Positions 10,382-24,933 of a stretch of 32,000 bases of DNA are shown here, piece after piece (the first letter of the stretch is position 1; every line of letters begins with the position of its first letter). The notes beneath the pieces are model-generated. The model was not told the DNA's origin. It saw only the letters and a list, made by a program, of their open reading frames with translations, and ran no database searches. This DNA comes from Candidatus Nanopusillus sp. (GTDB taxonomy: Archaea; Nanobdellota; Nanobdellia; Nanobdellales; Nanobdellaceae): assembly GCA_028276785.1 (NCBI GenBank), contig JAPYVP010000001.1, positions 30,001 to 62,000 on the forward strand. Direction: 5' to 3'. The position numbers and the translations under genes were made by a program.

Positions 10382-10645
10382 TTTTTTTAACTTCTTTCTT
10401 ATTTCTAATATTGCATCATGAATTGCAGCACCAAGAAACAAAGATGTTAATATATGTAATTCATATAAATATGTTAACATTCCGATTATTGATAAATATA
10501 CATGGTGAACTTTTGCCCTATATTTTTTCGTCCGTGTTTTAATTTCAATAAATAATTCTGGCGAAAATTTTTTAATTATATAATCTGCTGAGAAATATCC
10601 CGCCAAGAATGATAAACTATAAGTTATTGCAATAATATCGCCCAT
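10355..10645 (-). CDS. Small membrane protein, unknown function
   Basis: 96 aa with about 3 hydrophobic segments and a Lys-rich C-terminus. Its 3' end overlaps the giant surface-protein gene convergently by 27 nt. A TATA element sits at the expected distance from its ATG. Confidence 0.45.
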   Translation of the reverse strand: MGDIIAITYSLSFLAGYFSADYIIKKFSPELFIEIKTRTKKYRAKVHHVYLSIIGMLTYLYELHILTSLFLGAAIHDAILEIRKKLKKLDYTKQNK

Positions 10646-10667
10646 TTTATAATAATGTCATTCATTA

Positions 10668-10677
10668 TTTTAAAAAA
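10668..10677. promoter_or_regulatory. Central A/T-symmetric TATA element shared by divergent genes (rps24e and the 96-aa gene)
   Basis: TTTTAAAAAA is centred in the 54-nt intergenic region. It spans -32..-23 from the rps24e ATG (10700) and -23..-32 from the minus-strand ATG (10645). Confidence 0.4.
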
Positions 10678-10699
10678 TTATATCATATAAATTAATTAC

Positions 10700-10984
10700 A
10701 TGGATCTAAAAATAATAAGTAGGGAAAATAATCAATTATTGAATAGAGAAGAAATTATTGTTTTGATAGATCATAAAAATGAACCAACACCAAAGAGGGA
10801 TGATATAAGGGAAAAAATTTCAGCAATGATTGGAAAAAATAAAAACTTAATTGTGGTAGAAAAAATATTGACAGAATTTGGAAAACAAAGATCAAAAGCA
10901 TTTGTAAATGTATATCAAAATGAGGAGGATATGAAAAAATTAGAGCCAAAACATATATTAAAAAGGAATAAGATTATACAATGA
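10700..10984 (+). CDS. rps24e: 30S ribosomal protein S24e
   Basis: 94 aa. NQLLNREEIIVLIDHKNEPTPKRDDIREKISAMIG...FGKQRSKAFVNVYQNEEDMKKLEPKHILKRN is typical of S24e. It shares an ATGA overlap with rps27ae, the conserved archaeal gene pair. Confidence 0.9.
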   Translation: MDLKIISRENNQLLNREEIIVLIDHKNEPTPKRDDIREKISAMIGKNKNLIVVEKILTEFGKQRSKAFVNVYQNEEDMKKLEPKHILKRNKIIQ

Positions 10985-11184
10985 GCAAAGAGAAAGATTT
11001 GAGAATATTAAAATTATACAAGGTTGAAGAAAATAAGGTAATTAGGTTAAAAAAAGTTTGCCCAAAATGTGGAAGATTTATGGCAGAACATAAAGATAGA
11101 TATCATTGTGGATATTGTGGATATACAGAATTTAAGCAAAAAATAGAAAAAAGATATATAAAGGAAATTGGAATACAAATATAG
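10981..11184 (+). CDS. rps27ae: 30S ribosomal protein S27ae (zinc ribbon)
   Basis: 67 aa with C4 ribbon CPKCG...CGYCG and the motif FMAEHKDRYHCG. Sits immediately after rps24e. Confidence 0.88.
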   Translation: MSKEKDLRILKLYKVEENKVIRLKKVCPKCGRFMAEHKDRYHCGYCGYTEFKQKIEKRYIKEIGIQI

Positions 11185-11488
11185 TATAAAATATTTTGGT
11201 CCTATTAGATCTTTTATTGGTTTAATGTTTCAATTGCCAAAAAAAGATACTATATATATTTTAGATCTAAAAAAAGATGTTGAAGGAGGGTTTGTTCACA
11301 CATTCTTTTGTTTAAAACCATTGGACATTTATCTATATAACTCAAATTTCGAATTAGTTCAATATTATAAAAAATTAAAGCCATTTAGAATTATAGTTCC
11401 AAAGAAAAAATTTAGATATATAATTGAAGGTTTGGATATAAATGATGATATGTTAAACTATTCAATAGAATATTTAAAATCTCTGTAA
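11168..11488 (+). CDS. Hypothetical protein, DUF192-like (candidate)
   Basis: 106 aa. The pattern GLMF...HTFFCLKPLDIYLYNSNFELV...YIIEG resembles the DUF192/COG1430 consensus (GLM..., W/FM...PLDI.F.d..g.V, yvLE..aG). The match is from memory only. The start is uncertain because it overlaps rps27ae by 17 nt. Confidence 0.4.
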   Translation: MEYKYSIKYFGPIRSFIGLMFQLPKKDTIYILDLKKDVEGGFVHTFFCLKPLDIYLYNSNFELVQYYKKLKPFRIIVPKKKFRYIIEGLDINDDMLNYSIEYLKSL

Positions 11489-11860
11489 ATTATTAGTTAA
11501 TATTTCTATCTCTATAAACAATCTATCTATTAAACTTTTTACTTCTTTTATTCCATTATTTATCTGTCCAAGAATTTCTATTTTTATACTTGGTGTTATG
11601 TAAGGGTTTTTACTTATTTCTTTATAATATAGAGTTATATAATCCTTTATACTTTCCAAAACACCTATTAATAACTTCATTGAATTTATTAAATTATTAA
11701 TTTCTTGCATTTGATAATTATATAAATAGTAAGGGTTCTCATTAAAATTTTTTTCATATGCATTTAAACTTTCTAATTGCAAAATATTGCTATTTATTTG
11801 TGATAGTAAATTCTTGATTTGGGCTAATAATTGATTTTCTAAATCTTGAATATTATCCAT
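11474..11860 (-). CDS. Hypothetical coiled-coil protein
   Basis: 128 aa with heptad-like Leu/Ile/Asn/Gln-rich helices at both ends. No family recognised. It lies just downstream of the C/D sRNA on the same strand. Confidence 0.5.
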   Translation of the reverse strand: MDNIQDLENQLLAQIKNLLSQINSNILQLESLNAYEKNFNENPYYLYNYQMQEINNLINSMKLLIGVLESIKDYITLYYKEISKNPYITPSIKIEILGQINNGIKEVKSLIDRLFIEIEILTNNLQRF

Positions 11861-11889
11861 AATTAATTAATATTTTAACTATCTTATAT

Positions 11890-11948
11890 TTTTTCAGGGA
11901 GGAGGTGTATTCATCATTTATTCAGTCGCGCGCAACATCATCATATAA
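11890..11948 (-). ncRNA. C/D-box sRNA (2'-O-methylation guide)
   Basis: The minus strand reads AUGAUGA (C, 11944-11938), UGUUGCGCGCGA (12-nt guide), CUGA (D', 11925-11922), AUAAA, UGAUGA (C', 11916-11911), AUACACCUCCUCC (13-nt guide) and CUGA (D, 11897-11894). All four boxes are perfect and the spacing is canonical for archaea. It is also the only GC-rich island in an intergenic region of this window. Confidence 0.85.
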
Positions 11949-12555
11949 ATTTTAATATTCCCTCCTTTTTATCTTTATTTAATATTTCTTTTATTGTTTT
12001 AAAATCTTGATCAAAATATTCTCTCCATTCTTTATGATATAATGTAGATGCTGGGTGTAATGTTGGTATTATTGTGATATTTTTTCCCCATTTATTTACT
12101 TTGAATATTTTTCCCCTTAATTTTGTTATTGAAGAAAATTTTAATTTGAAATAATTGAAAATCCATTTTGTTGAATAATGACCTAAAGTTACTATTATTT
12201 CCGGCTGAATTATTTCTAATTGTTTTTCTAACCAAAAAGAACATGCTTTTATTTCTTCTTCTTTCGGTTCTCTATTTTCCGGAGGTCTACATTTAACAAC
12301 ATTGGTTATATATACATCACTTCTATCCATGTTTAATATATTTTTTATATTTTCATTCAATACTTGTCCAGCTTTTCCAACAAATGGTTTTCCCTGTTTA
12401 TCTTCTTCCCTACCAGGTGCTTCTCCTATAAATAATATCCTAGAATTTGGATTACCGTCTCCAGGAACATAATTTGTTTTATATTTATATAAAGGACATC
12501 TGGTACATTCTGATATTTGATTATTTAGTTCATCAATCATCTTTCTTTTATCCAT
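11941..12555 (-). CDS. udg: Family 4 uracil-DNA glycosylase (4Fe-4S type)
   Basis: 204 aa. CTRCPL...[36 protein letters not shown] is the family-4 UDG motif, and further Cys at VVKCRPP and KACSFW complete the cluster. HPAS lies near the C-terminus. Confidence 0.9.
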
Positions 12556-12588
12556 TAAAAATATAAGTATGATAATTATTTTAGTTTA

Positions 12589-13425
12589 ATGTTTGCACAT
12601 GCTCAAGGTGAATATAATGAATCAAAATGGATAATTATTGGAATTCCATCAGAAATTGGTAGTTTATCACATGTAAAAAATTATATTGAAGGGCCTGAAT
12701 CCATTAGAGATGCATCTTACAGAATATTTTCTCCAATATTTGGGGAAATAAATATGGAAGATATATATGACTATGGAGATATAGATTTGGAAGATATAAA
12801 GGATCTGGATAAATTATATGAAAAAATATATAAAGAAATTAAAAAAATATATAGGAAAGATAAAAAGTACATATTTTTAGGAGGAGATCATTCAATAACA
12901 TATCCAATATTAAAAGTTATTAAAGAAAACTGGGGGGATTTTTACTTATTGTATTTTGATGCCCATCCAGATATTCACCCCGACCCATATCCAAATTATC
13001 AAAGTTTTATTTATCATTTAATAAAGGAAAATTATATTGAACCTGAAAAAATTATTTATGTTGGTATATCTAATTTATCGTTCGAAGAAAAAAATATAAT
13101 AAAGGAGTGGGTGATAAGATATTATAATCCTTTGGATGTTTGGGATAATATAAAAGAAATTTCAAAGGAGATATCAAATATATTAGAAAATAAAAATTTA
13201 TATATTTCAGTTGATATAGATGTATTTGATACAGGATGTGGACATTGGTTAGAAGGTATTGGAATCAGACCATATCATTATTTTAAGATTATAAAAGAAT
13301 TAAGAAATATAAATTTAATTGGTTTTGATTTAGTAGAATTATTTTCAAACGAAGTATGTGATAATTTGGCTGCAAAAATTGTCATTGAATCGATAGCAAT
13401 CTTTAATAAATCTATGCAATCATGA
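12589..13425 (+). CDS. speB: Agmatinase / arginase-family ureohydrolase
   Basis: 278 aa. All three arginase-family metal-binding motifs are present: LGGDHSITYP, FDAHPDIHPD and SVDIDVFD. Confidence 0.8.
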   Translation: MFAHAQGEYNESKWIIIGIPSEIGSLSHVKNYIEGPESIRDASYRIFSPIFGEINMEDIYDYGDIDLEDIKDLDKLYEKIYKEIKKIYRKDKKYIFLGGDHSITYPILKVIKENWGDFYLLYFDAHPDIHPDPYPNYQSFIYHLIKENYIEPEKIIYVGISNLSFEEKNIIKEWVIRYYNPLDVWDNIKEISKEISNILENKNLYISVDIDVFDTGCGHWLEGIGIRPYHYFKIIKELRNINLIGFDLVELFSNEVCDNLAAKIVIESIAIFNKSMQS

Positions 13426-14059
13426 AATGTGTTTGATTAATTCTTTTTACATATACTGTTACAAGTTGATAAAATGTAATATTATTTACTGAATAACATG
13501 GTATGTAATTACATATAATATTTCCATTTGTATTTTCTGTACATGTTATATTTCCATATAAATTTGTTGGAAATAAAAATACAAAAGTTTGATTTGAAGT
13601 ATTTTTATTACTCAAACAAAAACTATATAAGAAATAATAAAAGTCTGAATAATAATTTTTACATATGGTAAATTTGATATAATCTAAAGAATAATATACT
13701 GAAATTGGATACGTATATGTATTACAATTTCCATTGAAATTTATAATTCCAAAACTATAATTACCAATTTCTGCTCTAAATGTATAGGGAAATATTGTAC
13801 AATTTGGAAGCATATTATAATATGTTTGATTGAATTGCCTTATTTTTTCCATTGTTGTGAAGTATATTGGATAATTTGGATATCCTATACAATTTGGAGA
13901 AAATAGGTTGTATATTATTTCTTGTTGATATGAAAAAGAAGTTTGTTCTTTATAATTTGTTAAATTAATGCTAGAAAATATCGCTAATAAAAGTATCATA
14001 CCTAATAAAAATAATACAGTTAATATTGTTATAAATACTATGGAAAATTGTCCTTTCAT
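13412..14059 (-). CDS. Pilin-like protein with canonical class III signal (operon gene 12)
   Basis: 215 aa. The N-terminus MKGQFSIVFITILTVLFLLGMILLLAIF fits the archaeal prepilin motif (K-G | Q-x-S followed by a hydrophobic helix). The mature part is Cys-containing and rich in N-x-S/T sequons. Confidence 0.6.
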   Translation of the reverse strand: MKGQFSIVFITILTVLFLLGMILLLAIFSSINLTNYKEQTSFSYQQEIIYNLFSPNCIGYPNYPIYFTTMEKIRQFNQTYYNMLPNCTIFPYTFRAEIGNYSFGIINFNGNCNTYTYPISVYYSLDYIKFTICKNYYSDFYYFLYSFCLSNKNTSNQTFVFLFPTNLYGNITCTENTNGNIICNYIPCYSVNNITFYQLVTVYVKRINQTHFMIA

Positions 14060-14067
14060 CTTTTATA

Positions 14068-15303
14068 TTAGAGATAATCTTTTATACATTCCTCTGGAAA
14101 TGGTATTGTTTCTGGGCATGTTGGGTTGTTAGGACATTGTCCAGGTAAACATACTGGACATTCTTCTCCACCAATTATACACATATAGCATTCAACTGGG
14201 ATTGAATAATAATATGGGAATGTAAATATTATTTTTGAATCTTCTCTACTTATGCTTACATCACCACATCCATCTATTGCGGAACATGAATATTTTTGAT
14301 CTTGTAATGTACAACTTTTCGATATTGCTTCTTTATTTGTTTCGTTGTATATTCCCGTACAACTATATATACAATTTAGATAATATTTGTTTGTTACATT
14401 TTCATAAAAAACTATTGAAGTAATAGTTATGGATTGTGGATATGTATTCCCATTATAATATACATTATATCTATTATCAGAACATTTTAATATTACTCTA
14501 CAAGCAATTTCTCTAGGATATAAACATATTTCACATAATGGAATATCCACACACTTATGTGGGATTATTGTTTCGTTACATTGAATATACGGATTATTTG
14601 AAAATTGTTCAAATCTCCTTGCACAATTATTGGTTGTAACATTATTAAATAATGTATTTACACAATCTTGAAAAGAACATTCGGGAAATTCTTCTAAAGA
14701 AAATTGGTATGCTAGATTATATAAATAAAATGCTGGATTGTTTGTTATATTTGATGTAGATGCATAGGGAATTATTGAACCAGAGGAAGGTCCAGTAATA
14801 TTTATATATACTCCTTGAACATAAACAGGAAAGTTATAATTATATTTTCCGGAATATATATCATCACATGTTCCTAGAATACCAGCTCGATAATTATTTG
14901 AAAAATTGAAAGATATATTATATGGATGATAGTATCTATATGCAAACAAATATTGTTCCCCATAACTTATTAAGCTTGTAAATCCAGAAGTTAGCAAATT
15001 ATTGTAATATTGAATCGCATTTTCACATGGTTGTGGTAATATACACTGAGGAGGAAAAGAAGCCCAGTTTTCTTTTCCCCAACCACTTGTTCCTGCTACA
15101 TAAGATTTTGCATAACCCTCCTGTGTTAGTGCTGTTTGTAAATATCCTAAAAGGTAGTTTGATAAAGTTGATAAAGATGTAAATCTACCAAAAACAACAT
15201 TCTGATTATAATTATATGTTAATGCATAAAAAGATAGAAGAATTATTAATATAGAAACTGTCAAAAATAGAACTACATAAATACTTTCTGTTTGATTTCT
15301 CAT
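14068..15303 (-). CDS. Cysteine-rich secreted/anchored protein with pilin-like N-terminus (operon gene 11)
   Basis: 411 aa. The N-terminus is MRNQTESIYVVLFLTVSILIILLSFYAL. I count 24 Cys, with a dense C-terminal cluster ECYMCIIGGEECPVCLPGQCPNNPTCPETIPFPEEC. Its start shares an ATGA overlap with the stop of the upstream gene. No family recognised. Confidence 0.6.
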   Translation of the reverse strand: MRNQTESIYVVLFLTVSILIILLSFYALTYNYNQNVVFGRFTSLSTLSNYLLGYLQTALTQEGYAKSYVAGTSGWGKENWASFPPQCILPQPCENAIQYYNNLLTSGFTSLISYGEQYLFAYRYYHPYNISFNFSNNYRAGILGTCDDIYSGKYNYNFPVYVQGVYINITGPSSGSIIPYASTSNITNNPAFYLYNLAYQFSLEEFPECSFQDCVNTLFNNVTTNNCARRFEQFSNNPYIQCNETIIPHKCVDIPLCEICLYPREIACRVILKCSDNRYNVYYNGNTYPQSITITSIVFYENVTNKYYLNCIYSCTGIYNETNKEAISKSCTLQDQKYSCSAIDGCGDVSISREDSKIIFTFPYYYSIPVECYMCIIGGEECPVCLPGQCPNNPTCPETIPFPEECIKDYL

Positions 15304-16505
15304 AATTTTAATTTAACATGAAGGTATATAAGTGTTAATATAATCATTGTTACTACCAATCCATGTATTATACCTAGTATTTTCATTATATTTGGTATAG
15401 ATAATATACTTAATGGAGGACCTCCATATACTGCAAATTCTAGTAACTCTCCAATTACAACTTGTATTATAAGTAATATTCCAATTGTAATACCAATAGC
15501 TTTTTTAATTGGTTTTTTAACATTACTAAATAGTTTATAATGTATTCCCATGAAGAAAAATATCATAGCCATAAGATATCTTGTATGTAGAGCATAAGAA
15601 GTAAAATCTTTATATGATGTAAATAATGCGCCCAAAAATATTATCAAGACCATAGTAAATAGTAAGAAGTAATTTGTGAAATGATCATTTTTCATGCTCT
15701 TATAAATTAAGAAATAAATAATAAATTCAAATATGGATAAAAATATAAGAGCTTTATATACAGTAATCTGATATTTTACAATTAAACCCTCTGAAGCTAG
15801 ATTACTATAAGATGATAACCCGTATATAGCTATAATAAGTTGTAATATTATAATAAAAAATATTAATAAAAATATGTACTTTTTATATTTATAAATTTCT
15901 GATAATTTTTTGAATATTTTTGTTCTTACTATAAGTATTTCATTGCCATTAGAATATACAATCAGAAATAGAAATATGGCAAATACAATAAACAAAGTTG
16001 AATATAATATTTTGAAAGTATAAATATTTGATAATGCAAAATTAATGATTGAACCAACTATAGGCCCTGTTGCTACTTCTAAATCTATGGTTATAACGTT
16101 GATTACCAATTCAAGGAAAAATAGTATTATAAATAAAACTAAAGAAAGCACATAAAATATTAAAGATTTTTTTGAAATATAAAAGTTATTTTCAAATAAA
16201 TAATATCCTAGAGCAAATGCTATAAAGTAAAATATCCAATAATTTATTGAAAGACCAAGTGATAAACGTACTAATAAAGGCCAATCTTGATAATAGAGAG
16301 TTCCAAAAATTATAAATGGTATAAGTAAAAATACTGACTTATATATCAAAGAAGTATTCTTCGAATTTTTTAATATAAAAGATAATAAAAATAGATATAT
16401 TGTACCAAAGATAATTATGTTAATATTAAATTTACTATCAAAAGTAAAAAATAAGAATATTAATAGATATAAAAGAAATAAAATTTTATCTTGTTTTTTT
16501 ACCAT
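15300..16505 (-). CDS. Polytopic membrane protein, Cys-free, unknown function (operon gene 10)
   Basis: 401 aa with about 11 hydrophobic helices. It overlaps the upstream gene by 7 nt and the downstream gene by 4 nt. No family recognised. Confidence 0.6.
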   Translation of the reverse strand: MVKKQDKILFLLYLLIFLFFTFDSKFNINIIIFGTIYLFLLSFILKNSKNTSLIYKSVFLLIPFIIFGTLYYQDWPLLVRLSLGLSINYWIFYFIAFALGYYLFENNFYISKKSLIFYVLSLVLFIILFFLELVINVITIDLEVATGPIVGSIINFALSNIYTFKILYSTLFIVFAIFLFLIVYSNGNEILIVRTKIFKKLSEIYKYKKYIFLLIFFIIILQLIIAIYGLSSYSNLASEGLIVKYQITVYKALIFLSIFEFIIYFLIYKSMKNDHFTNYFLLFTMVLIIFLGALFTSYKDFTSYALHTRYLMAMIFFFMGIHYKLFSNVKKPIKKAIGITIGILLIIQVVIGELLEFAVYGGPPLSILSIPNIMKILGIIHGLVVTMIILTLIYLHVKLKL

Positions 16506-18127
16506 ACTGTTAATTTAGAAACAAGATATCCGCCTAGAAAAGGCATATCTACTGGCAAATATATGTAATATACATATATGTTTGTGTTTGGTGGTATTGG
16601 ATATCCTAAACTTACACTATTTTGACTACTTTGGTAAATATAAGCGTTTAATTCTTCTTTGTTTCCTGTATCGGTAATACAATATGCTCTTGCCATTGCA
16701 ACGCCATTTGATCCAGCATGTGGATCATAATATACTGCAGAAATTATAAACTGATTTGTATTTGGATCCCTATCATTTATTACCCATCTAGTAATATTAA
16801 ATCTATAAAATCCTTGAGCATATGTATTAATACCACCCAAGTAAACTAAAGGACACTCCTTTCCAACAATAATTCCGTTTATATTTTGTATATCATTGTA
16901 TACACCAGTTGGACATCTTATTGTTCTTCCATTTATTTTATATTCACACAAAGGATCTGCTGCTAAAAATACATAATCTGGTTGTCCATTTTTATTTAAA
17001 TAAGAAATATATAGAGCTACTGTTTCATGCCATGGATAATCTATAAATACTTGTTGACAATTTGGTAGTATATTTACTATACCTCTATAAAAAGATCCTA
17101 CAACTAATACCTGACCACCCCCACAAAGGGAATTACCTGTATATCTTGTACCAAATTCTTGTTGACATGCTGCATCTAAATATTCTCTTGGGATTATAAA
17201 ATCTGCTAGTCTATTTATGTCAGTAGCAGTTTTATAAACAGGAGGACCTTGATAATAATAAGGTGTAGAGGTTAAATATTGATTATTAGTTGCTGGACAA
17301 GATCCTGTATATATGCATAAGAATCCAGAAAATAAATTTGGTAAGTTAGATACTGGATGAGCTGGCGTACCACCTACACCTAAAAAATTTGGAAATAAAT
17401 GCCATTCACTATTGGGGCAATATACAGAAGCTTCAGTAAAATTATGATTTGGAAGTATTCTTGATAGAGGTTCACAATATCCTAATCGTATGGCTATTTC
17501 TTGTGATTGTTGTGGATAAAATGATTGTAAGCCCCATGCATTTGTTGATAATGTTTGATGAAAAGGTGCTGTTGCATTGACCCATCCAGCTCCATATATA
17601 GTTAGGCTTACTGGTATATCAATATTCTGTGTATAATTATTTGTAAAGAAATACGTATAATTCCATTCATACCATTGTTTGCCATTTTGATCTGGTGGAG
17701 GTCTCATTGAACATGGATCCCAATTATTTATATTGCCAGCTACTATGAACATCTGGACAATCCATCCAGTTATTGGTGGTACAAAATATATTGTAAGGTT
17801 CCATCTATTTCCATATATACTATTGAAATAATTTGTTATAGTCTGCGATATATTTGTACATATATTTTGATTTATGCAGTATGTATCGTTTCCAGAAGAT
17901 GAAAAATAAGATAATAAAAATGCGTAGGATAAGTTAACTTTATTATCATTAACATATGATAATAAAACAATACTATTCTGGATTGTTAGTGTGTATTGAT
18001 TTTCTACATTATATGTTTGCATTGTTCTTTGATTATAGTTACTTGATATTAAGGTATATAATAGAACTAATAATGATATTATTGAAATTATAATAACAAA
18101 TGTTATAGTATTTATTTGGTTTCTCAT
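16499..18127 (-). CDS. Large secreted/anchored protein with pilin-like N-terminus (operon gene 9)
   Basis: 542 aa. The N-terminus is MRNQINTITFVIIISIISLLVLLYTLI. The rest is a Cys-, Trp-, Tyr- and Pro-rich ectodomain with sequons. No family recognised. Confidence 0.6.
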   Translation of the reverse strand: MRNQINTITFVIIISIISLLVLLYTLISSNYNQRTMQTYNVENQYTLTIQNSIVLLSYVNDNKVNLSYAFLLSYFSSSGNDTYCINQNICTNISQTITNYFNSIYGNRWNLTIYFVPPITGWIVQMFIVAGNINNWDPCSMRPPPDQNGKQWYEWNYTYFFTNNYTQNIDIPVSLTIYGAGWVNATAPFHQTLSTNAWGLQSFYPQQSQEIAIRLGYCEPLSRILPNHNFTEASVYCPNSEWHLFPNFLGVGGTPAHPVSNLPNLFSGFLCIYTGSCPATNNQYLTSTPYYYQGPPVYKTATDINRLADFIIPREYLDAACQQEFGTRYTGNSLCGGGQVLVVGSFYRGIVNILPNCQQVFIDYPWHETVALYISYLNKNGQPDYVFLAADPLCEYKINGRTIRCPTGVYNDIQNINGIIVGKECPLVYLGGINTYAQGFYRFNITRWVINDRDPNTNQFIISAVYYDPHAGSNGVAMARAYCITDTGNKEELNAYIYQSSQNSVSLGYPIPPNTNIYVYYIYLPVDMPFLGGYLVSKLTVW

Positions 18128-18981
18128 TTTAGATAATATAATAGCATAAATAGGCCTATTATTACTATAATTATAACTATTGCTGCTGGCAAAATCAAAT
18201 TAACGTTGTTGTTGTTATTAGTACTTACATTTGGTTGTGGATAAATTAATTGTTGGTTATTATTTGTTAAATTTACTTCAGTTTGATTTATACATTCAAA
18301 TACGCCAGTACAAGATATATAAACAATATTTGGTGGTGGACATTTTTGTAGAAATTCTTGATATAATTGATTTAATGAATAATTGTATGGACATCTAAAC
18401 CAGTTACCTTGGAAAGATAGATTTTCTGGACAATAACCACAGCCGTAAAAATTATGGTAGTATGATAATAGTTGCTGATAGGATTCATTACCTGCTAAGT
18501 AAGAAGGTGGTATATATGGGGGATCAAAACAAGGGTAAATTTGATTAGAACATGGTGGATAATACCAAGGCATATTTGGACAATTTAATAGACTATCACA
18601 TAATGTTTGATTCTCCTCTGGTATAATTACATCTTGATATGCAGATGGAGGAATTAATAGATATGGACTAACTAATGTACCGTTTGGATATTTACAATAA
18701 CTGCTATTTACATATATCAATCCATAACGAGTACAAAATGAATACTCTGGAGGTACATTATTTTCATAATATTGTAGAGCATCAAAATATGTATTATTTA
18801 TAATACAATAGACACCTGTATCATTTGTATAATAAGTTCCTCCACCATATTCACAATAAACTGCTATTGGATTTTTCATAGAATATATACTATTCATAGA
18901 GTATATGTATATAATATATAAAAAAATTATAAAAATAATTATAATAAGTGCTAATAAATTTCTATTTTGCGAGAGTAACAT
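18124..18981 (-). CDS. Cys/Pro-rich bitopic protein with DUF333-like module (operon gene 8)
   Basis: 285 aa with an N-terminal hydrophobic helix (LLALIIIIFIIFLYIIYIY) and a C-terminal TM anchor (ILPAAIVIIIVIIGLFMLLYY). NPIAVYCEYGGGTYYTNDTGVYCI resembles the DUF333/COG3042 motif (NPAsvyC...GG...G.C). Confidence 0.55.
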   Translation of the reverse strand: MLLSQNRNLLALIIIIFIIFLYIIYIYSMNSIYSMKNPIAVYCEYGGGTYYTNDTGVYCIINNTYFDALQYYENNVPPEYSFCTRYGLIYVNSSYCKYPNGTLVSPYLLIPPSAYQDVIIPEENQTLCDSLLNCPNMPWYYPPCSNQIYPCFDPPYIPPSYLAGNESYQQLLSYYHNFYGCGYCPENLSFQGNWFRCPYNYSLNQLYQEFLQKCPPPNIVYISCTGVFECINQTEVNLTNNNQQLIYPQPNVSTNNNNNVNLILPAAIVIIIVIIGLFMLLYYLK

Positions 18982-20518
18982 TTTGTATTGCTACAATTGA
19001 AAACTTAGGAAATGATAGGCCGAAAGGCGACTGCTCAAATGGTATGTATATGTATCCATCTTGCATCCAATAAACCCCTCCACAAGGTGCTCCCATTGCA
19101 GTGCTGCAAGCTCGATAATTTGAATAATATTTATAGCACTCACTTTTACTACGAGTTATCATACGCATTCTACCATCTGAAGTAAAAGCTAAGCATCCTG
19201 TTACACGTCCCCAAGAATTTTGAATTATCCAACATTTTGGAGTTCCATATACTTCTTGACATAGTTGGGATTGTGTATCATATCCAACCAACAGCATAGC
19301 ATGACCCGTATCACCTACAAAATATAAAGGATACATGTTTGGATTAGATCCGCCCTCTCCAGCCATATAGCCACTAACCGTCAATGGTCCATAACACAGT
19401 AAATATTGAATTATTTCCTGACTTGATAGAGACTTCCCTCTTTGAACTAATTCCATAACTTTGTGTGAATAATACATTGGTGAAGTAGGTCCATTATAAT
19501 CAAAACCACATACATCATCAGGATAACTGATGGCATCGTCATTCGTACTACATCCTTTTAAAGTAGAACTATAATATCTTCGTCCAGGATCTGCTGGTAT
19601 ACCATATTGAGATGTATATAGTATACCGTAGTATGGCAAACCACCATTACAACCTATATTATGTTCACAATATTTTGGAGTATTTGGATATCTATAATTG
19701 CACTTTATTGCTATGTATGCGGCAGATAATGTTAATCCTTCATTAGGTTTATTATTTCTTATCATATAGATTGCAGCAATCCCGTTTGAAGATGCAAATG
19801 CCCAATAGTCTCCACAAACCCCTTGATCGCCTACTGGAGGTAAATAATTATTCCCATCTACATCACCCCAGAAAAATTTTGGTTGTCCAGTATATTTAAC
19901 TAAACATCTACTATTTGGGTCAATAGTATTATTAGTTTGATTAGTTTGATTTGTATTATTGTTATTTGTTTGATTGGTATTATTTGTCTGATTAGTCTGA
20001 TTATTTTGATTATTATTATTATTCTGATTTTGATTATTGTTATTATTTTGATTATTATCTGGATTTATAACTATAATAGTCCCGTTAGGCAAATATCGAT
20101 TAAATATAAAAATTGTATCATTAAAATCTGCAGAAATAAAAATAGTATTATTTGTACTAACCAAATATATATAATTATTTGGATATAAAAAACTTACATT
20201 TTGACCATTATTGTATAAAATTACGGATTTATTTTGAAAATTAATCGTATAATTATTATTATTATATTGGATTATTAATTCGTTGTCTCTTGAATATAAT
20301 ATAATTCCACTTGGTATATCAACTTTTATATAATATGTACCTTGCATATTATTTATTGTATCCTGTAAATTTTGTAAATTATTGACAAAATTTTCAAATA
20401 TGAATTTTTCTTGTTCCCTTTTAACATTTGTAGAATATTGATAATAAATTAAGAAAGATAATGATACGATTAATAATATTATTGCTACTGAAAGCAAATT
20501 TAACTGATTCTTTTTCAT
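18962..20518 (-). CDS. Pilin-like N-terminus, beta-rich domain, Asn/Gln/Thr stalk and papain-fold (C1-like) domain with Cys-to-Tyr at the nucleophile position (operon gene 7)
   Basis: 518 aa. The N-terminus is MKKNQLNLLSVAIILLIVSLSFLIYY. PPVGDQGVCGDYWAFASS aligns with papain TPVKNQGSCGSCWAFSA. GHAMLLVGYD aligns with the catalytic His motif and IIQNSWG with the Asn motif. The Tyr codon TAT was read directly at 19805-19807 on the minus strand. Confidence 0.7.
   Translation of the reverse strand: MKKNQLNLLSVAIILLIVSLSFLIYYQYSTNVKREQEKFIFENFVNNLQNLQDTINNMQGTYYIKVDIPSGIILYSRDNELIIQYNNNNYTINFQNKSVILYNNGQNVSFLYPNNYIYLVSTNNTIFISADFNDTIFIFNRYLPNGTIIVINPDNNQNNNNNQNQNNNNNQNNQTNQTNNTNQTNNNNTNQTNQTNNTIDPNSRCLVKYTGQPKFFWGDVDGNNYLPPVGDQGVCGDYWAFASSNGIAAIYMIRNNKPNEGLTLSAAYIAIKCNYRYPNTPKYCEHNIGCNGGLPYYGILYTSQYGIPADPGRRYYSSTLKGCSTNDDAISYPDDVCGFDYNGPTSPMYYSHKVMELVQRGKSLSSQEIIQYLLCYGPLTVSGYMAGEGGSNPNMYPLYFVGDTGHAMLLVGYDTQSQLCQEVYGTPKCWIIQNSWGRVTGCLAFTSDGRMRMITRSKSECYKYYSNYRACSTAMGAPCGGVYWMQDGYIYIPFEQSPFGLSFPKFSIVAIQNVTLAK
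19925..20062 (-). repeat. Low-complexity Asn/Gln/Thr coding repeat (stalk/linker)
   Basis: Encodes PDNNQNNNNNQNQNNNNNQNNQTNQTNNTNQTNNNNTNQTNQTNNT. The DNA is made of degenerate GTTTGATTA / GTCTGATTA-type short repeats. It includes at least 7 N-x-T sequons. Confidence 0.8.
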
Positions 20519-20557
20519 TATGATCTATTAATATCTAAAAAATTTTTTAAAATTTTT

Positions 20558-20998
20558 TTAACTTGGGTTTTCTATATAAATTGTTACATCTGTTGGAGAT
20601 GTTTTTTTAACAAGCAATGGTATTTTTTGATTTGGACTCCCACGTGACAATTCATAGAATAATCCGGAAGTATAATATTGAATCATATTATTTGTTGTAT
20701 TTATTATTACATTGCAAGGCACTGTATAATTATAATATTTGTCATATATGTAACAACTTAGTAAATTACCATTACTATATATATAATTTAGATATTTGTT
20801 TATTTCAATAGTAATATGAAATTCTGTTCCATTATTGGAATAGCACGCTCTTTCAACTGTTGTATATAAATTTTGACATGAAGATATATTTTTATATAAT
20901 AATTGAGTCTCATTATTTATGCCTACAAATTTAAAATATAAATATAAAGATAAACCAAAAGCAACAATTGCTATAATTATCCAAAACCACTTTTCCAT
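20558..20998 (-). CDS. Small signal-anchored protein (operon gene 6)
   Basis: 146 aa. N-terminal helix MEKWFWIIIAIVAFGLSLYLYF, four Cys and several sequons. No family recognised. Confidence 0.5.
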   Translation of the reverse strand: MEKWFWIIIAIVAFGLSLYLYFKFVGINNETQLLYKNISSCQNLYTTVERACYSNNGTEFHITIEINKYLNYIYSNGNLLSCYIYDKYYNYTVPCNVIINTTNNMIQYYTSGLFYELSRGSPNQKIPLLVKKTSPTDVTIYIENPS

Positions 20999-21000
20999 CT

Positions 21001-21414
21001 TTATCCTTGAATATTAATATAAACATAATTTCCTGCCGAATAAATTAATATATACTTTCCAGGATTTATATTATAATTACAATTTTGCATTACAACATTC
21101 GGATCTATGCTGTTTACTTTATTTATTAAATCTTGACATGTAAATGATGGTCCTTGATAATGAATCAAATAACATAAACCTTGGGCTTTTTTATAATAAC
21201 ATGATACTACATTCATTGCAACAGTTGTCATTGAATTTACATTTGTTTCTACTATAGTTTGTGTATTATTATATTTTGGCATTATGTTATCTACATATGA
21301 AGATACGTTCCCTCTTAATACAAATATTATTCCTATAATTGTTATGGTAACAATTATCCCGATAAATATTAAAAAAGTATAATTAATTGGAAGCTCTTGA
21401 ATTCTCATTGCCAT
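21001..21414 (-). CDS. Small pilin-like/signal-anchored protein (operon gene 5)
   Basis: 137 aa. N-terminus MAMRIQELPINYTFLIFIGIIVTITIIGIIFVL. It shares a CY...CY core and a beta-like C-terminus (KYILIYSAGNYVYINI) with gene 4. Confidence 0.5.
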   Translation of the reverse strand: MAMRIQELPINYTFLIFIGIIVTITIIGIIFVLRGNVSSYVDNIMPKYNNTQTIVETNVNSMTTVAMNVVSCYYKKAQGLCYLIHYQGPSFTCQDLINKVNSIDPNVVMQNCNYNINPGKYILIYSAGNYVYINIQG

Positions 21415-21884
21415 ATTATAATATAACTATTGTTGTATATTATAAATATGCTGTTGTATGGATATATTCTTCCTTCACTATTATTTAAACGGAATATAAT
21501 TTTATTTGGATTAAATTTAGTATAATTTTGTACATATTGTATTAATGTTGTCGAATTTAGGACAATATTCTTATTTATATAAACATCATAACATATATCA
21601 AATAATTTATTTGTATTTACATTATTATTGTAACAATTTAATATTAATCCTACTATACTTGAATAAATTGTATCAATACTCTCATTTGAATATATAACAT
21701 TTATTGCAGAAGGATAATATTCTTTGCATGATGGGGAAAAACCGCCCTGTGATATTAATGTTTGACAATAATATGCTTGAGAATTACTAAAGAATTTTGT
21801 ATATATAATGCTTAATATAACTACGGCGGATATTATTGCTATTATTATTATAAATATAGTATCTATTGCTATGTCGTTCTTCAT
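21405..21884 (-). CDS. Small pilin-like/signal-anchored protein (operon gene 4)
   Basis: 159 aa. N-terminus MKNDIAIDTIFIIIIAIISAVVILSIIY. Contains LNCYNN...DICYDVYI and a C-terminal RIYPYNSIFIIYNNSYIII. Overlaps both neighbouring genes. Confidence 0.5.
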   Translation of the reverse strand: MKNDIAIDTIFIIIIAIISAVVILSIIYTKFFSNSQAYYCQTLISQGGFSPSCKEYYPSAINVIYSNESIDTIYSSIVGLILNCYNNNVNTNKLFDICYDVYINKNIVLNSTTLIQYVQNYTKFNPNKIIFRLNNSEGRIYPYNSIFIIYNNSYIIIWQ

Positions 21885-22165
21885 ATATAATGAATACTTC
21901 CGTTATAAATATATATAATTCTATAGCCAGAAGGTATTGTTATTCCATTTATTGTACAATTCTCACTAAGGAACACTTTAATATCAATTATTTCTCTAAA
22001 ACTTTTATCGTATAAATTTTTTAATTGCTGACAATTAATAGTTTGTATATTCTCTCCACCCAAATTATTTTTTACATTATAAATATAATAAAAAGAAAAT
22101 AGACTAGCAGCTACAATTAATATAAAGGTTATTATAATCCAATATATTGAATTTTGAAGTTTCAT
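21881..22165 (-). CDS. Small pilin-like/signal-anchored protein (operon gene 3)
   Basis: 94 aa. N-terminus MKLQNSIYWIIITFILIVAASLFSFYYIY and C-terminal GYRIIYIYNGSIHYI. It has 4-nt overlaps at both ends. Confidence 0.5.
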   Translation of the reverse strand: MKLQNSIYWIIITFILIVAASLFSFYYIYNVKNNLGGENIQTINCQQLKNLYDKSFREIIDIKVFLSENCTINGITIPSGYRIIYIYNGSIHYI

Positions 22166-24132
22166 AATTTTATATCTGTTGGCAAATATGGGCCAAATAT
22201 TGTATATACTACTAATATTCCTACTATTGAAAATATTACATAAAATATTGTTCCAAACAGAAGATTCCTACCTATATAATATGAAGTCATTGTACTATCA
22301 AAGCCATATTTTATTCCAGCACTCATATATGATGTTATTATTACATATTCTATAAAAAATATGCCTATTATTGCTACAAAAAATGTTGGTGGTATTAAAT
22401 TATATAGATTAAATGTGGTTACAATAAAATTGAATAAACTAGATCCACCTCCCAGACCAAAAGATTGGCTTATCAATTGAAAGAAGTATGCAAGTGCAAA
22501 AAGCATTGAAACTATACCATTATTAAAAACTGTAACCATTGCAGAAATTAATGGTACTAGATTTCTTGATGTCATATCTATTAATCCAATTATTTCATTT
22601 AATATTTTTCTTACACTATATCTTATGTTGTTTACATTTTCTAAATTTGTTGATACGTTATATGCAATTTTTGATAAGGTTTCAGGACCCTTTGATGCAG
22701 AAGTAACCAAAAGTTGCATAGACTCTCTTACTAATTTTGATGGATATAAATTTAATGAACCAATTTTTGGATCAAATATAGATGTATTTAAATCATAACC
22801 CCTTCTTAAATTATATAATGTTGTTTTTAGGAAGTTTTCCATAACACCGGAAGATTTTATTATCTTATAATTATAATAGGTTTTTTCAATCACTATTTCA
22901 AATGGATAACCATCTTCTAATAGTGATGCAAATTCGTATACAACAATTGGAAACTCATTTTCTATTTCTTCAATTTCATATATTTTTTTAACTTTTTGGA
23001 AAGATGTCAAATAATAATAAGACCCAATACCTAAACCCAATCCCAGAGGTAATGTTAAAGTTAAAACAGAATATATTAATGCTCTATCTTGATAAACTAT
23101 ATTTAAATAATCACTTAAAAATCCTTGTGGGATAAGAGCAATTTTTATAGCTAAAGAAATTAAATGATAAATTCCTATAATTGCAATCGATCCCAATATT
23201 ATTGAAATTATTATTGCCGGAACTTCTTTATTTCCTAATTTAAATTTTCCAGGTTTTGGTAAATCCTTTGCTAATGATAAATCTGGAACGGCAAATGCAA
23301 ACGGATTTTTTGATAGAAAATTTTGAATTATTAAGAAGGTAATGACAGGTAGAATTATTATATACGAAAATGCTATGAAATAGAAACTTACAGTATTTAA
23401 CAAAAACACAGATATTATTGGTAACATCATCAAACTGACTATAGGCATCATTACTAAGAAAGATATAATAACTGTTGCCGGTTCTTTCAGAGCATCTACA
23501 TATGATTGGGATTTTTCTAAAGATTTCTTTAACACCCATCCTAATATTCTGTCTAATAATTTATTTATATCATCAATAGACGTTTTATATTTAATATTTA
23601 CAATATGTGTCATTGCATATACAAAATCTGGACTTAAATAAAACCATCTTCTCTGATAATATTCCAGTGCTGATTCAATATCTTTAAACTTACTTGTTTC
23701 TAAATTATATAATAATGATTTAAAGTCTGTTGCAATATAACCTTTCATATAATATGCTACATATTTTATTCCATTTTCTAGATTAGGATTTCTTTTTAGA
23801 TATAAAGATAAATATAATATTATCCATACAATTTCTGATGTTACCTGTATTCTAACAATTTGTGTATAGAATATTGGATAATATGCAAAATAGAATGATA
23901 ATATTAGTAAAGATATTAATAAAGAAAAAGCTAATTGAAAGCTTACAAAACTTAAAATAAGATATATAATTATAGAAAATATTGTTATAGTTATTACAGA
24001 GGAAAATATGTTATCTGGATTAGTATTTAATCTATTTAACCATAAATGAAATGCATATTTTTTATATATAGAATTGGGGGCTTTTATTTTTATTAAATTA
24101 AAATTATTGTAAAAATACTCAAAAAAATTCAT
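22162..24132 (-). CDS. FlaJ/TadC/PilC-like polytopic platform protein (two T2SS-F-like repeats), candidate (operon gene 2)
   Basis: 656 aa. Two soluble helical modules are each followed by TM bundles: YPIFYTQIVRIQVTSEIVWIILYLSLYLKRNPNLENGIKYVA...DIESALEYYQRRW and EIENEFPIVVYEFASLLEDGYPFEIVIEKT...LYNLRRGYDLNTSI. This matches the duplicated T2SSF-domain layout of archaeal FlaJ/PilC. The gene sits next to a class III signal protein. Confidence 0.5.
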   Translation of the reverse strand: MNFFEYFYNNFNLIKIKAPNSIYKKYAFHLWLNRLNTNPDNIFSSVITITIFSIIIYLILSFVSFQLAFSLLISLLILSFYFAYYPIFYTQIVRIQVTSEIVWIILYLSLYLKRNPNLENGIKYVAYYMKGYIATDFKSLLYNLETSKFKDIESALEYYQRRWFYLSPDFVYAMTHIVNIKYKTSIDDINKLLDRILGWVLKKSLEKSQSYVDALKEPATVIISFLVMMPIVSLMMLPIISVFLLNTVSFYFIAFSYIIILPVITFLIIQNFLSKNPFAFAVPDLSLAKDLPKPGKFKLGNKEVPAIIISIILGSIAIIGIYHLISLAIKIALIPQGFLSDYLNIVYQDRALIYSVLTLTLPLGLGLGIGSYYYLTSFQKVKKIYEIEEIENEFPIVVYEFASLLEDGYPFEIVIEKTYYNYKIIKSSGVMENFLKTTLYNLRRGYDLNTSIFDPKIGSLNLYPSKLVRESMQLLVTSASKGPETLSKIAYNVSTNLENVNNIRYSVRKILNEIIGLIDMTSRNLVPLISAMVTVFNNGIVSMLFALAYFFQLISQSFGLGGGSSLFNFIVTTFNLYNLIPPTFFVAIIGIFFIEYVIITSYMSAGIKYGFDSTMTSYYIGRNLLFGTIFYVIFSIVGILVVYTIFGPYLPTDIKL

Positions 24133-24137
24133 TACCT

Positions 24138-24902
24138 TTAACTTGTTGCGGCTGGTATGTTAATTAACTGGTTGTATGGTACTCTCATCAAGAATTGACA
24201 TAGTGGCATACCGTTATCATTATTATTTATACCCAGTGCTGCACAATTTCCTGTTACTACTAATATTCCATTACTGACTATCAAGTTTAAATTACATCCA
24301 TGTGCACTATTATAATATTTAAGAACTTTTAACAGTGCAACGAATACTTGGTTTGTAATCCATGTTGGTAATTGTGCGGAACACTGTGCTGGACCTGGAT
24401 ATAATATCTGGGATGGAGAAGAAATGTAAATCGTTGCTTGTCCAGTTTCTACATTAAATGATGTGGTAGAAGAATAATTTCCAAATACATAACTTGTTGC
24501 TTGTACTGGACTATAATATAATGTATCAATGTAATGGCGACATGTTAAATACATACATGCTAATGGTGTTATTTGATATCCCTGATATTGACATTGACTA
24601 GAAGGACCTCCGTATAATTGCAATACTACACTACATGGAACTGCATTTGAACAGATATAATACCCAGGACTTGCTTGTACAAGCCCATTTCCTATGTTTT
24701 CATACCTTGTACAGAATGTTACTGGATCTTGTTGACAATAGTTTAAACAATTAGCAACTGCTTGTTGTATTTGTGTGTTGGATATTTGGCTAATATTTGA
24801 TGATTGTTGCTGAAATAGTCTAATTACAATAACCGCTACTACTAACATTATTATTATTACGAATATCAACTGTACAGCCATATCTATACCCCTTCTTTTC
24901 AT
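24138..24902 (-). CDS. Class III signal (type IV pilin-like) cysteine-rich protein, first gene of the operon
   Basis: 254 aa. MKRRG|IDMAVQLIFVIIIMLVVAVIVIRLF has a basic residue then Gly, followed by a ~22-residue hydrophobic helix, as in a prepilin signal. I count 12 Cys. A promoter-like TATA lies at -24..-31. Confidence 0.6.
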   Translation of the reverse strand: MKRRGIDMAVQLIFVIIIMLVVAVIVIRLFQQQSSNISQISNTQIQQAVANCLNYCQQDPVTFCTRYENIGNGLVQASPGYYICSNAVPCSVVLQLYGGPSSQCQYQGYQITPLACMYLTCRHYIDTLYYSPVQATSYVFGNYSSTTSFNVETGQATIYISSPSQILYPGPAQCSAQLPTWITNQVFVALLKVLKYYNSAHGCNLNLIVSNGILVVTGNCAALGINNNDNGMPLCQFLMRVPYNQLINIPAATS

Positions 24903-24925: not shown

Positions 24926-24933
24926 TTTATAAA
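24926..24933 (-). promoter_or_regulatory. Candidate TATA box (with purine-rich BRE) for the 12-gene surface operon
   Basis: The minus strand reads AAAACA-TTTATAAA-(23 nt)-ATG. The TATA spans -31..-24 relative to the ATG at 24902, the geometry expected for a leaderless or short-leader archaeal mRNA. It lies in a 37-nt intergenic gap. Confidence 0.45.

Follow-up and report, generated by a model that had tools for sequence, protein, structure and literature searches.

The twelve-gene run on contig JAPYVP010000001.1 of Candidatus Nanopusillus sp. raises the question of which surface structure, if any, its products build together. The window analysed here is a 32-kb stretch of this contig (positions 30,001 to 62,000, renumbered from 1) with a G+C content of about 25%, and the genes, designated G1 to G12, occupy positions 13412-24902 of its minus strand. 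An initial annotation, made from the window alone, had proposed an uncharacterised operon for pilin-like proteins, a platform protein and large Cys-rich ectoproteins. The present analysis suggests that the operon probably encodes a lineage-specific machine of the archaeal type IV filament (TFF) superfamily, comprising all the parts except the ATPase and the signal peptidase, and we infer roles in filament formation and host attachment. The platform protein, the N-termini of the pilin-like proteins and the conservation of the whole set are considered first, followed by the accessory members and the missing partners.

The platform protein is G2 (22162-24132, minus strand), a polytopic protein of 656 residues without a single cysteine. 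It was placed in the TadC/FlaJ/T2SSF family (arCOG01814) from the PF00482 matches of its relatives and from genomic context. When homology to T2SS-F/FlaJ proteins was searched for, full-length relatives of G2 matched PF00482, and the platform assignment already made in the initial annotation was upheld by this transitive profile evidence together with the context. Relatives were found by phmmer down to an E-value of 2e-53 over 98% of the length of G2; four of 13 (P0010, P0011, P0014 and P0015) matched PF00482, one of them above the gathering threshold. A search with a profile of the G2 family returned 1437 full-length representatives. Ten members were sampled, and in five of them T2SSF was the sole recurring Pfam family. 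The T2SSF scores of family members ranged from 26.6 to 36.1 bits (cut-off 25.2). The matches fell in both halves of the protein, which fits the weak internal duplication detected in G2 with hhalign, as in T2SSF proteins.

The genomic context was read for six distant relatives of G2, and five of them are linked to an ATPase: in loci L003, L004, L015, L016 and L017 the gene for the relative overlaps the end of a T2SSE ATPase gene. An A24 peptidase is also encoded nearby in L003. In two of these five loci (L015 and L016), seven to nine pilin-like genes lie directly downstream of the platform gene, and their products begin with KRG↓QELS, KRG↓QIEMS or KG↓IE (the arrow marks the putative cleavage site) before a hydrophobic helix. 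The most distant relative examined (L005) is a solitary G2 homologue, adjoined by neither ATPase nor pilin genes. In N. acidilobi, the ortholog Nps_00520 is filed in arCOG01814, which in this genome also holds a 'T2SS protein F' gene adjoining an ATPase, and the ortholog of N. aerobiophila is annotated as 'type II secretion system protein'. By prediction from sequence, G2 is a divergent platform protein of the TadC/FlaJ type (T2SSF).

Immediately upstream, G1 (24138-24902, minus strand, 254 aa) is the candidate major pilin. It starts with MKRRG↓IDMAVQLIF, has one N-terminal transmembrane (TM) segment and contains 12 Cys in its head domain. The class III (prepilin) signal ascribed to it earlier was confirmed as a canonical and conserved motif in the alignment of orthologs, the N-termini of which read M[KRG]K[KR][GSA], then [ILV][DE]MA[VI][QE]L[IV]F and a hydrophobic stretch of about 20 residues. 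In five orthologs the motif KR[GSA]↓[ILV][DE]MA is conserved and the acidic residue at +2 is kept. In the form [KR]G↓I[ED], the motif matches the tandem small pilins of the Aenigmatarchaeota locus (KG↓IE), and a weak NCBIfam match of the N-terminus to GspG was obtained (E 0.015). Eleven of the 12 cysteines are at least 80% conserved. The AlphaFold2 model of G1 (pLDDT confidence score of 79) displays a helix at residues 2-37, a second helix and four short strands, followed by a mixed alpha/beta head. A profile search of PDB sequences gave no match, and the family, with 39 clusters, is confined to Nanopusillaceae.

Nine further genes had been described as starting with a short basic N-terminus followed by a hydrophobic helix. 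This count was too generous, as G8 is a Sec-type protein with a C-terminal anchor and as G6 begins with the non-basic MEKWFW. A class-III-like start was recognised in six products (G3, G5, G7, G9, G11 and G12), in which a conserved M[KR][NSGA]Q start precedes one hydrophobic helix; G4 and G6 possess a single N-terminal helix without this motif. Each pilin-like protein has exactly one N-terminal TM segment. G1 and G12 carry a class III signal with a putative cleavage site, and G3, G5, G7, G9 and G11 carry one in a looser form. The variable small residue in front of the invariant Gln would correspond to position -1 of a euryarchaeal 'KGQ'-type site. In these genomes of 23-25% G+C, the Gly at -1 is often replaced by Asn or Ser.

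Four of these products are small. G3 (21881-22165, minus strand, 94 aa, one TM segment, 2 Cys) starts with MK[NSLG]Q in most orthologs and weakly matches the NCBIfam class III signal domain (E 0.069). G4 (21405-21884, minus strand, 159 aa) has a basic start, MKNDIAID, lacks the motif, and has one TM segment and four invariant Cys. G5 (21001-21414, minus strand, 137 aa), also with one TM segment and four invariant Cys, reads MK[NS]QEMP in several orthologs, a start comparable to KRG↓QELS in the Woesearchaeota locus L015. G6 (20558-20998, minus strand, 146 aa) is a small N-terminally anchored protein with four invariant Cys, and its MEKWFW is preceded by MRNQ only in the most distant ortholog.

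Among the larger products, G9 (16499-18127, minus strand) is an ectoprotein of 542 residues with one TM segment, 14 Cys and the start M[KR][NSA]QIN. Its family, which includes MJ1_0107 and Nst1_645, is confined to Nanopusillaceae. A profile search of PDB sequences revealed nothing significant, and the AlphaFold2 model reached a pLDDT of 60 only. The Foldseek matches of this low-confidence model were insignificant beta-sandwiches of the lectin, carbohydrate-binding module (CBM) or PA14 type (best E 6e-3, TM-score at most 0.38), headed by PA14-type yeast adhesins, CBMs and ephrin-receptor ligand-binding domains, a hint that G9 may contain a beta-sandwich binding domain. G11 (14068-15303, minus strand, 411 aa) starts with M[KR][NSV]Q.E and has one TM segment and 24 Cys. 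G12 (13412-14059, minus strand, 215 aa), with one TM segment and eight invariant Cys, displays the most canonical signal of the euryarchaeal type: MKG↓QFS in the window and KN↓QFS in orthologs, hence MKG/N-QFS in the alignment. Neither G11 nor G12 matched any PDB sequence. Searches with Pfam over the twelve products and with NCBIfam over ten of them gave the C1 domain of G7 as the sole family, the rest being noise or very weak N-terminal hints.

G7 (18962-20518, minus strand, 518 aa) is a modular pilin-like protein made of the start MKKNQ ([KR][NSY]Q in orthologs), one TM segment, an N-rich linker and a papain-family (C1) domain. The papain fold recognised earlier was verified (PF00112, 62.9 bits for a cut-off of 20.7, E 6e-17), with the qualification that the catalytic Cys is absent from the copy in the window. 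There, the sequence reads QGVCGDYWAF, with a Tyr (TAT) in place of the catalytic Cys at codon 238 (19805-19807). All six orthologs keep the Cys (CG[DN]CWA, codons TGT or TGC), including that of Nst1, whose DNA is about 87% identical to the window over the upstream half of the region. The catalytic His and Asn are kept in the five G7 sequences aligned. The single-base change from Cys to Tyr may reflect genuine inactivation or an error of sequencing or consensus calling; if genuine, G7 could be a pseudo-protease retained for binding. In YN1 it is an N-terminal module of the G6 type that bears the C1 domain as a fusion (L001 13201-14940), while the G7-type module of 141 residues is separate (15785-16210), which indicates that the enzyme domain moves between pilin-like carriers. 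The corresponding modules of L008 lie at 13201-13971 and 14928-15359, and no C1 domain was found in the called genes of that locus.

Conservation of the cluster was confirmed in the family Nanopusillaceae. The proposal of an ectosymbiotic DPANN archaeon was supported by the relatives of G2, which place the window in this family: a metagenome-assembled genome (MAG) of a 'Nanoarchaeota archaeon' encodes a protein with 95% identity to G2, and the cluster formed by G2 at 90% identity contains proteins of Nanobsidianus stetteri Nst1 and several Nanopusillus MAGs. The organism is thus a nanoarchaeon of the Nanopusillus/Nanobsidianus type, a tiny archaeon of hot springs that depends on a host. Archaeal markers (split RpoB, RpoH, TFB, a proteasome subunit and LonB) are present in the flanks of the window. 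Nine further Nanopusillaceae loci are syntenic, with the same operon gene order. The full gene set was found in the complete genomes of YN1 (L001) and Nanobdella aerobiophila MJ1, in the Nanopusillus MAGs L011 and L012 and in the Nanopusillaceae MAG L008; L006 and L007 stop within the operon. In the published gene table of N. acidilobi the operon corresponds to Nps_00470-00525, and the orthologous genes are located at about MJ1_0104-0115 in N. aerobiophila and around YN1_4460 in YN1. Wherever the contigs are long enough, the upstream flank (the RNA polymerase operon, RimK and DUF371) and the downstream flank (arginase) are shared as well. A genome-wide survey with a narrower G2 alignment returned five loci.

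Selection was estimated in comparison with Nst1, for which ten operon genes were comparable, as the ratio of nonsynonymous to synonymous substitution rates (dN/dS). The values ranged from 0.075 to 0.39, so that all the operon genes compared are under purifying selection. G2 (0.075), for which this selection is strong, falls among the flanking housekeeping genes (0.035-0.11), while G1 and G3-G10 range from 0.21 to 0.39. Evolution of the surface parts is thus three to five times as fast as that of the platform, which would be expected of proteins in contact with a host. Cluster counts agree with this contrast: at more than 79% identity G2 forms just two 90%-identity clusters, and the families of G1 and G9 each form about thirty clusters at roughly 67-94% identity.

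Variation between the loci was noticed at several points. In the Nst1 contig OBNano_10008 (L010 18728-21969, compared with window 10001-14717), only the first 196 residues of G11 are encoded, G12 and arginase are absent, and the block downstream runs in the opposite orientation to that of the window; the break is due either to a genuine rearrangement or to an artefact in the single-cell/metagenome assembly of 2013. YN1 and L008 contain two additional small genes and the rearranged papain module, and both have a second, shorter G8-like gene. In several relatives G12 is followed by a 13th gene for a polytopic paralog of G10 with 29% identity (L009 20640-21686, L012 20784-21809, L001 from 21375 and Nps_00465 in N. 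acidilobi). This paralog is missing from L011 and from the window, where none lies between 13412 and 13425 and where G12 overlaps the convergent arginase gene by 14 nt.

The genes are tightly packed. All twelve minus-strand open reading frames (ORFs) were present at the coordinates first assigned to them. The overlaps of 4 nt at 22162, 21881, 18124 and 15300 were recomputed from the coordinates, and those of 10 nt (G4/G5), 20 nt (G7/G8) and 7 nt (G9/G10) were reproduced, as were the gaps of 5, 2 and 8 nt and the single 39-nt gap at 20519-20557. The promoter proposed for the operon also withstood comparison. Its TATA box, TTTATAAA (24926-24933, minus strand, read from sequence), lies 24-31 nt upstream of the ATG of G1, and its position is kept in six further genomes. 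In all six compared with the window (L010, L008, L001, L009, L006 and L007), a TATA-like octamer is located at an equal distance from G1 amid diverged flanks, which argues for a real promoter. To judge from this alignment, the conserved spacing exceeds chance expectation for an AT-rich genome, and the transcript probably has a very short leader or none at all. The 39-nt gap before G7, TTTTAAAAAATTTTTT (20519-20557, minus strand), is A/T-rich, and a counterpart of 24-36 nt precedes the G7 ortholog in other genomes. It may be a putative internal promoter for the distal genes.

The extracellular character of the products is reflected in their composition, and counts across the operon support the earlier statement that most of them are rich in cysteines and N-glycosylation sequons. 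The numbers of cysteines in G1, G3-G9, G11 and G12 are 12, 2, 4, 4, 4, 14, 14, 14, 24 and 8, respectively. All are even, and most of the positions are conserved in 80% of orthologs or more; cysteines are absent from G2 and G10. A surface set consisting of the ten operon ectoproteins and a neighbouring surface protein of 1420 residues contains 2.97 sequons per 100 residues, for 1.69 expected from composition and 0.51 in cytoplasmic neighbours. The Cys content of this set is 3.0% (compared with 0.66%) and that of charged residues 6-13% (compared with 26-40%).

The gene for the 1420-residue protein is located at 6119-10381 on the plus strand. The protein has no Pfam match, 54 sequons and 25 Cys, and it resembles a head-to-tail fusion of two surface proteins: a Sec signal and an ectodomain come first, then a TM segment with RRKK behind it around residue 530, a second signal-like segment, another ectodomain and a TM segment at the C-terminus. 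To judge by gene order, it should correspond in N. acidilobi to Nps_00425, for which the annotation gives 'S-layer domain' and four TM domains. Another neighbour, a polytopic protein of 321 residues (3228-4193, minus strand) without Pfam match, should likewise correspond to Nps_00415 (nine TM domains). It was considered as an A24 peptidase and rejected, as no convincing Asp pair or GxGD motif was recognised by eye.

Two members of the operon are not pilin-like. G8 (18124-18981, minus strand, 285 aa, 14 Cys) is a Sec-type secreted protein with a C-terminal anchor. This is deduced from the N-termini of its orthologs, which have an ordinary Sec-type signal peptide and, at the other end, a conserved TM segment with a basic tail; a pilin-like nature is ruled out by these features. 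G8 contains 11 sequons (3.1 expected) and a weak DUF333 motif (E 0.009). G10 (15300-16505, minus strand, 401 aa) is the polytopic membrane protein embedded in the operon, with about 10 TM segments, as first described, and no Cys. It is well conserved only over the C-terminal part of about 110 residues. Four histidines (H307, H322, H381 and H396) and a GExLE motif are invariant. The pairs H307/H322 and H381/H396 are both spaced i,i+15 inside TM helices, a pattern that recalls bis-haem membrane cytochromes. No Pfam or PDB match was found for G10, nor were relatives detected outside the lineage. It was rejected as a degenerate second platform (hhalign probability below 1% against the G2 family) and, at the sequence level, as the missing A24 peptidase (no invariant Asp, no GxGD motif). 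G10 could, from its histidine pattern, be a new kind of partner that binds haem or metal.

In the mechanism proposed for a type IV filament, the pilin-like proteins would insert in the membrane and be trimmed by a signal peptidase of class III, and G2 would assemble them, powered by a secretion ATPase encoded elsewhere in the genome. The ATPase gene would have been separated from the platform and pilin operon in Nanopusillaceae. G1 would be the shaft subunit and G3-G6 the minor pilins, forming a priming or tip complex like bacterial minor pilins. G7, G9, G11 and G12 would be modular proteins displayed on the fibre as adhesins or enzymes, where they may engage the glycosylated S-layer of the host. 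G8, with its C-terminal anchor, and the polytopic G10, with its four invariant His, would act as envelope accessories.

Several results weigh against such a filament. None has been linked to the operon genes. A direct T2SSF (PF00482) match of G2 is absent even at E-values up to 1, and neither single-sequence nor profile searches with G2 gave a significant match in the PDB. Compared with the PDB by Foldseek, the model of G1 gave no match at E ≤0.001, and neither it nor that of G9 matched a solved pilin or archaellin. At the putative -1 position, Asn and Ser are as frequent as Gly and Ala, and Leu, Ile, Val and Tyr occur in single orthologs; this pattern is atypical for the known substrates of PibD, FlaK and EppA. 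Similarity between the pilin-like proteins was limited in hhalign to the N-terminal 30-65 residues, with modest probabilities, a pattern that is typical of pilins, though no proof. No ATPase and no A24 peptidase (PF01478) is encoded in the locus or in the ORFs scanned of the window. The gene table of N. acidilobi contains no annotated prepilin peptidase, and the archaellum genes that have been reported from N. aerobiophila and YN1 do not include one. Finally, none of the twelve operon orthologs was detected in the co-culture proteome of N. acidilobi, which is shallow and poor in membrane proteins; the neighbours RimK and RNA polymerase were detected. In N. aerobiophila, 735 of 736 genes are transcribed (Kato et al.).

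The missing partners had been anticipated, and the scanned ORFs of the 32-kb window indeed contain no T2SSE, KaiC or A24 domain; no secretion ATPase was found in the orthologous loci either. Candidates for the ATPase exist elsewhere in these genomes. N. acidilobi encodes several ATPases of arCOG01817 and one of arCOG01818 (Supplementary Data 1), and for at least one ATPase, Nps_01175, no platform gene is annotated among the tabulated neighbours. Nst1 has three FlaI paralogs besides FlaI (PMC3655853), and four FlaJ/TadC homologues were counted by Jarett et al. (2018), who discussed the Nanoarchaeota homologues (PMC6142677). As for the peptidase, its absence in two nanoarchaea was reported by Makarova et al. 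(2016) (PMC4858521). Archaella have been observed on N. aerobiophila, YN1 and YN4 in spite of the unannotated peptidase, and N. acidilobi, N. aerobiophila and YN1 all build archaella or express proteins of this organelle, so the gap is a property of the annotation of the lineage rather than evidence against processing. The class III signal peptidase of Nanopusillaceae appears still to be assigned in annotations.

A serious variant of the filament reading, which we nevertheless regard as unlikely, is a pseudopilus like the bindosome, where the TFF core would build a short stub in the envelope that holds functional proteins with class III signals at the surface. Four pilin-like products reach a large size (215-542 aa), one of them with an enzyme domain, which recalls Sulfolobus, in which substrate-binding proteins with class III signals depend on the small pilin-like Bas proteins (PMC4858521; preprint 10.64898/2026.04.22.720090). 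The absence of the orthologs from the N. acidilobi proteome would suit a stub, and no matching long filament has been identified. However, Pfam scans revealed no solute-binding or ABC-transporter domain in or beside the operon, and G1 has the look of a dedicated shaft subunit, sharing its signal motif with the tandem small pilins of related loci.

We judge it very unlikely that no filament of any kind is made, the operon encoding instead a co-regulated set of disulfide-rich surface glycoproteins with N-terminal anchors (accessories of the envelope or S-layer, or proteins of host contact) that happens to adjoin a TadC-like protein which is repurposed or has lost its ATPase partner. The exact class III motif of G1 with its conserved acidic +2 residue speaks against this, and so does G2, which is as constrained as housekeeping genes (dN/dS 0.075) and fixed beside the same set in ten loci. 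A proponent could point to the lack of ATPase and peptidase genes in the locus and of an annotated A24 peptidase in the lineage, but the lineage assembles archaella with that peptidase unannotated. The non-canonical -1 residues, the head domains that resemble no pilin and the solitary G2 homologue of L005, without ATPase or pilin neighbours, also lean towards an assembly of plain surface proteins. An operon belonging to the archaellum, as accessory or minor archaellins with their FlaJ, is extremely unlikely. Nanopusillaceae do make archaella, their arl genes are scattered and unclustered (PMC10117864), and G2 is FlaJ-like. Yet no product matches an archaellin domain or FlaF, FlaG, FlaH or FlaI in Pfam and NCBIfam; the archaellum ATPase, the FlaH-type ATPase and FlaD/E of N. 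acidilobi are encoded at a separate locus (Nps_00925-00940); G2 belongs to arCOG01814 with a second protein, annotated 'T2SS protein F', and not with an annotated FlaJ; and FlaBDEHIJF has been reported for YN1 in a paper that draws no link to the operon. A type IV filament machine stays the probable reading.

If the operon builds a filament, the host-contact structures of related organisms are of interest. The cultivated Nanobdellales N. aerobiophila, YN1 and YN4 attach to their hosts via a large organelle with a cone, a portal and a filament or tube of 7-8 nm, the protein composition of which is, according to the authors, unknown (PMC11420986, PMC11104419). The tube leaves the cone-shaped organelle and crosses the host's S-layer; it is described as entering both cytoplasms, which is hard to reconcile with a pilus. 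N. aerobiophila additionally bears a second, rough appendage of about 15 nm, the identity of which is unexplained. The operon is present in both N. aerobiophila and YN1. It is nonetheless doubtful, and we hold it to be quite unlikely, that it builds one of these Nanobdellales structures, be it the 7-8 nm tube with its portal or the rough appendage of about 15 nm. The width of a filament scales with the size of its subunit. With shaft subunits of about 250 residues, the filament would be thick, of the size of an archaellum, which fits the rough appendage better than the thin tube. Were the idea true, a papain-type protease carried by the pilus, together with lectin-like modular pilins, would open the host's S-layer and grip it, and processing would call for a class III peptidase of a new type. 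If the product is an ordinary adhesive pilus, it is still instructive, with pilin modules that carry large disulfide-rich domains and an enzyme.

The term 'uncharacterised' used in the initial annotation applies to part of the locus. The platform is filed in arCOG01814, annotated as a type II secretion system (T2SS) protein and discussed in the literature (PMC6142677). The pilin set and the operon are undescribed in the searchable literature: no description was found there of the operon, the pilin-like families, a papain-bearing modular pilin or G10, and the locus tags of the operon are not mentioned in the literature searched. Makarova et al. (2016) did not find cognate pilins for a nanoarchaeal type IV pilus (T4P) ATPase (PMC4858521). 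The operon represents a concrete candidate gene set both for these missing pilins and for host-attachment structures. It also exposes two gaps, namely a class III peptidase missing from annotations and a signal motif that apparently tolerates Asn or Ser at -1.

Among known systems, the ATPase-platform-pilin operons of the DPANN loci L015 (Woesearchaeota) and L016 (Aenigmatarchaeota) appear from sequence comparison to be the closest homologous loci. Their platforms are homologous to G2, with 22-28% identity over most or all of the length, and the order is similar, the platform coming first and being followed by 7-9 genes with class III signals ([KR]G↓I[ED] and [KR]G↓Q). In contrast to the window, where the ATPase is encoded elsewhere, the T2SSE ATPase gene lies directly upstream in these operons. 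Their downstream proteins are of 62-274 residues and mostly Cys-poor, whereas those of the window reach 542 residues and are Cys-rich. The papain domain, the Sec-type anchored protein and the extra polytopic protein are found in the window operon, unlike L015 and L016.

The operon of the Epd pili of Methanococcus maripaludis (system/clade 1) comprises 11 genes on a single transcript, with many minor pilins needed for piliation. In work by Szabo et al. (2007), Epd pilins reportedly carry a Gln at +1, like the MKG↓QFS of G12. The Epd system has a dedicated peptidase (EppA/EpdA) and two platform genes, unlike the window, which is without peptidase, and no homology to Epd pilins was found. The bindosome of Sulfolobus (Bas, subclade 4I) is similar in that a TFF core is required by large functional proteins that carry class III signals; its locus encodes extra membrane proteins, like the operon, and a secreted protein of about 500 residues. 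The Bas locus encodes its own ATPase, and the operon, unlike it, has no solute-binding proteins or ABC transporter. Modular pilins are also known from Streptococcus sanguinis, where the N-terminal pilin module of PilB is grafted on a functional or adhesive domain, which is thereby displayed by the filament, comparable to G7 and G9, the organism being bacterial and the domains unrelated (PMC8179133).

The closest architectural parallel, going by published description, would be the Cys-rich T4P loci of Thermoproteales, a lineage of Thermoproteota and not of DPANN. The likeness is one of architecture, and no sequence homology of their components to G1 and G3-G12 was found, although no comparison aimed at it was run. 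In subclades 4B, 4D and 4E, almost all components contain multiple conserved cysteines (PMC4858521). These loci also encode a large C-terminally anchored S-layer-like protein, several small minor pilins, additional membrane proteins and a large protein with a signal peptide that is a putative adhesin or minor pilin (PMC4858521), and for some of them the genes of the ATPase and TadC lie elsewhere.

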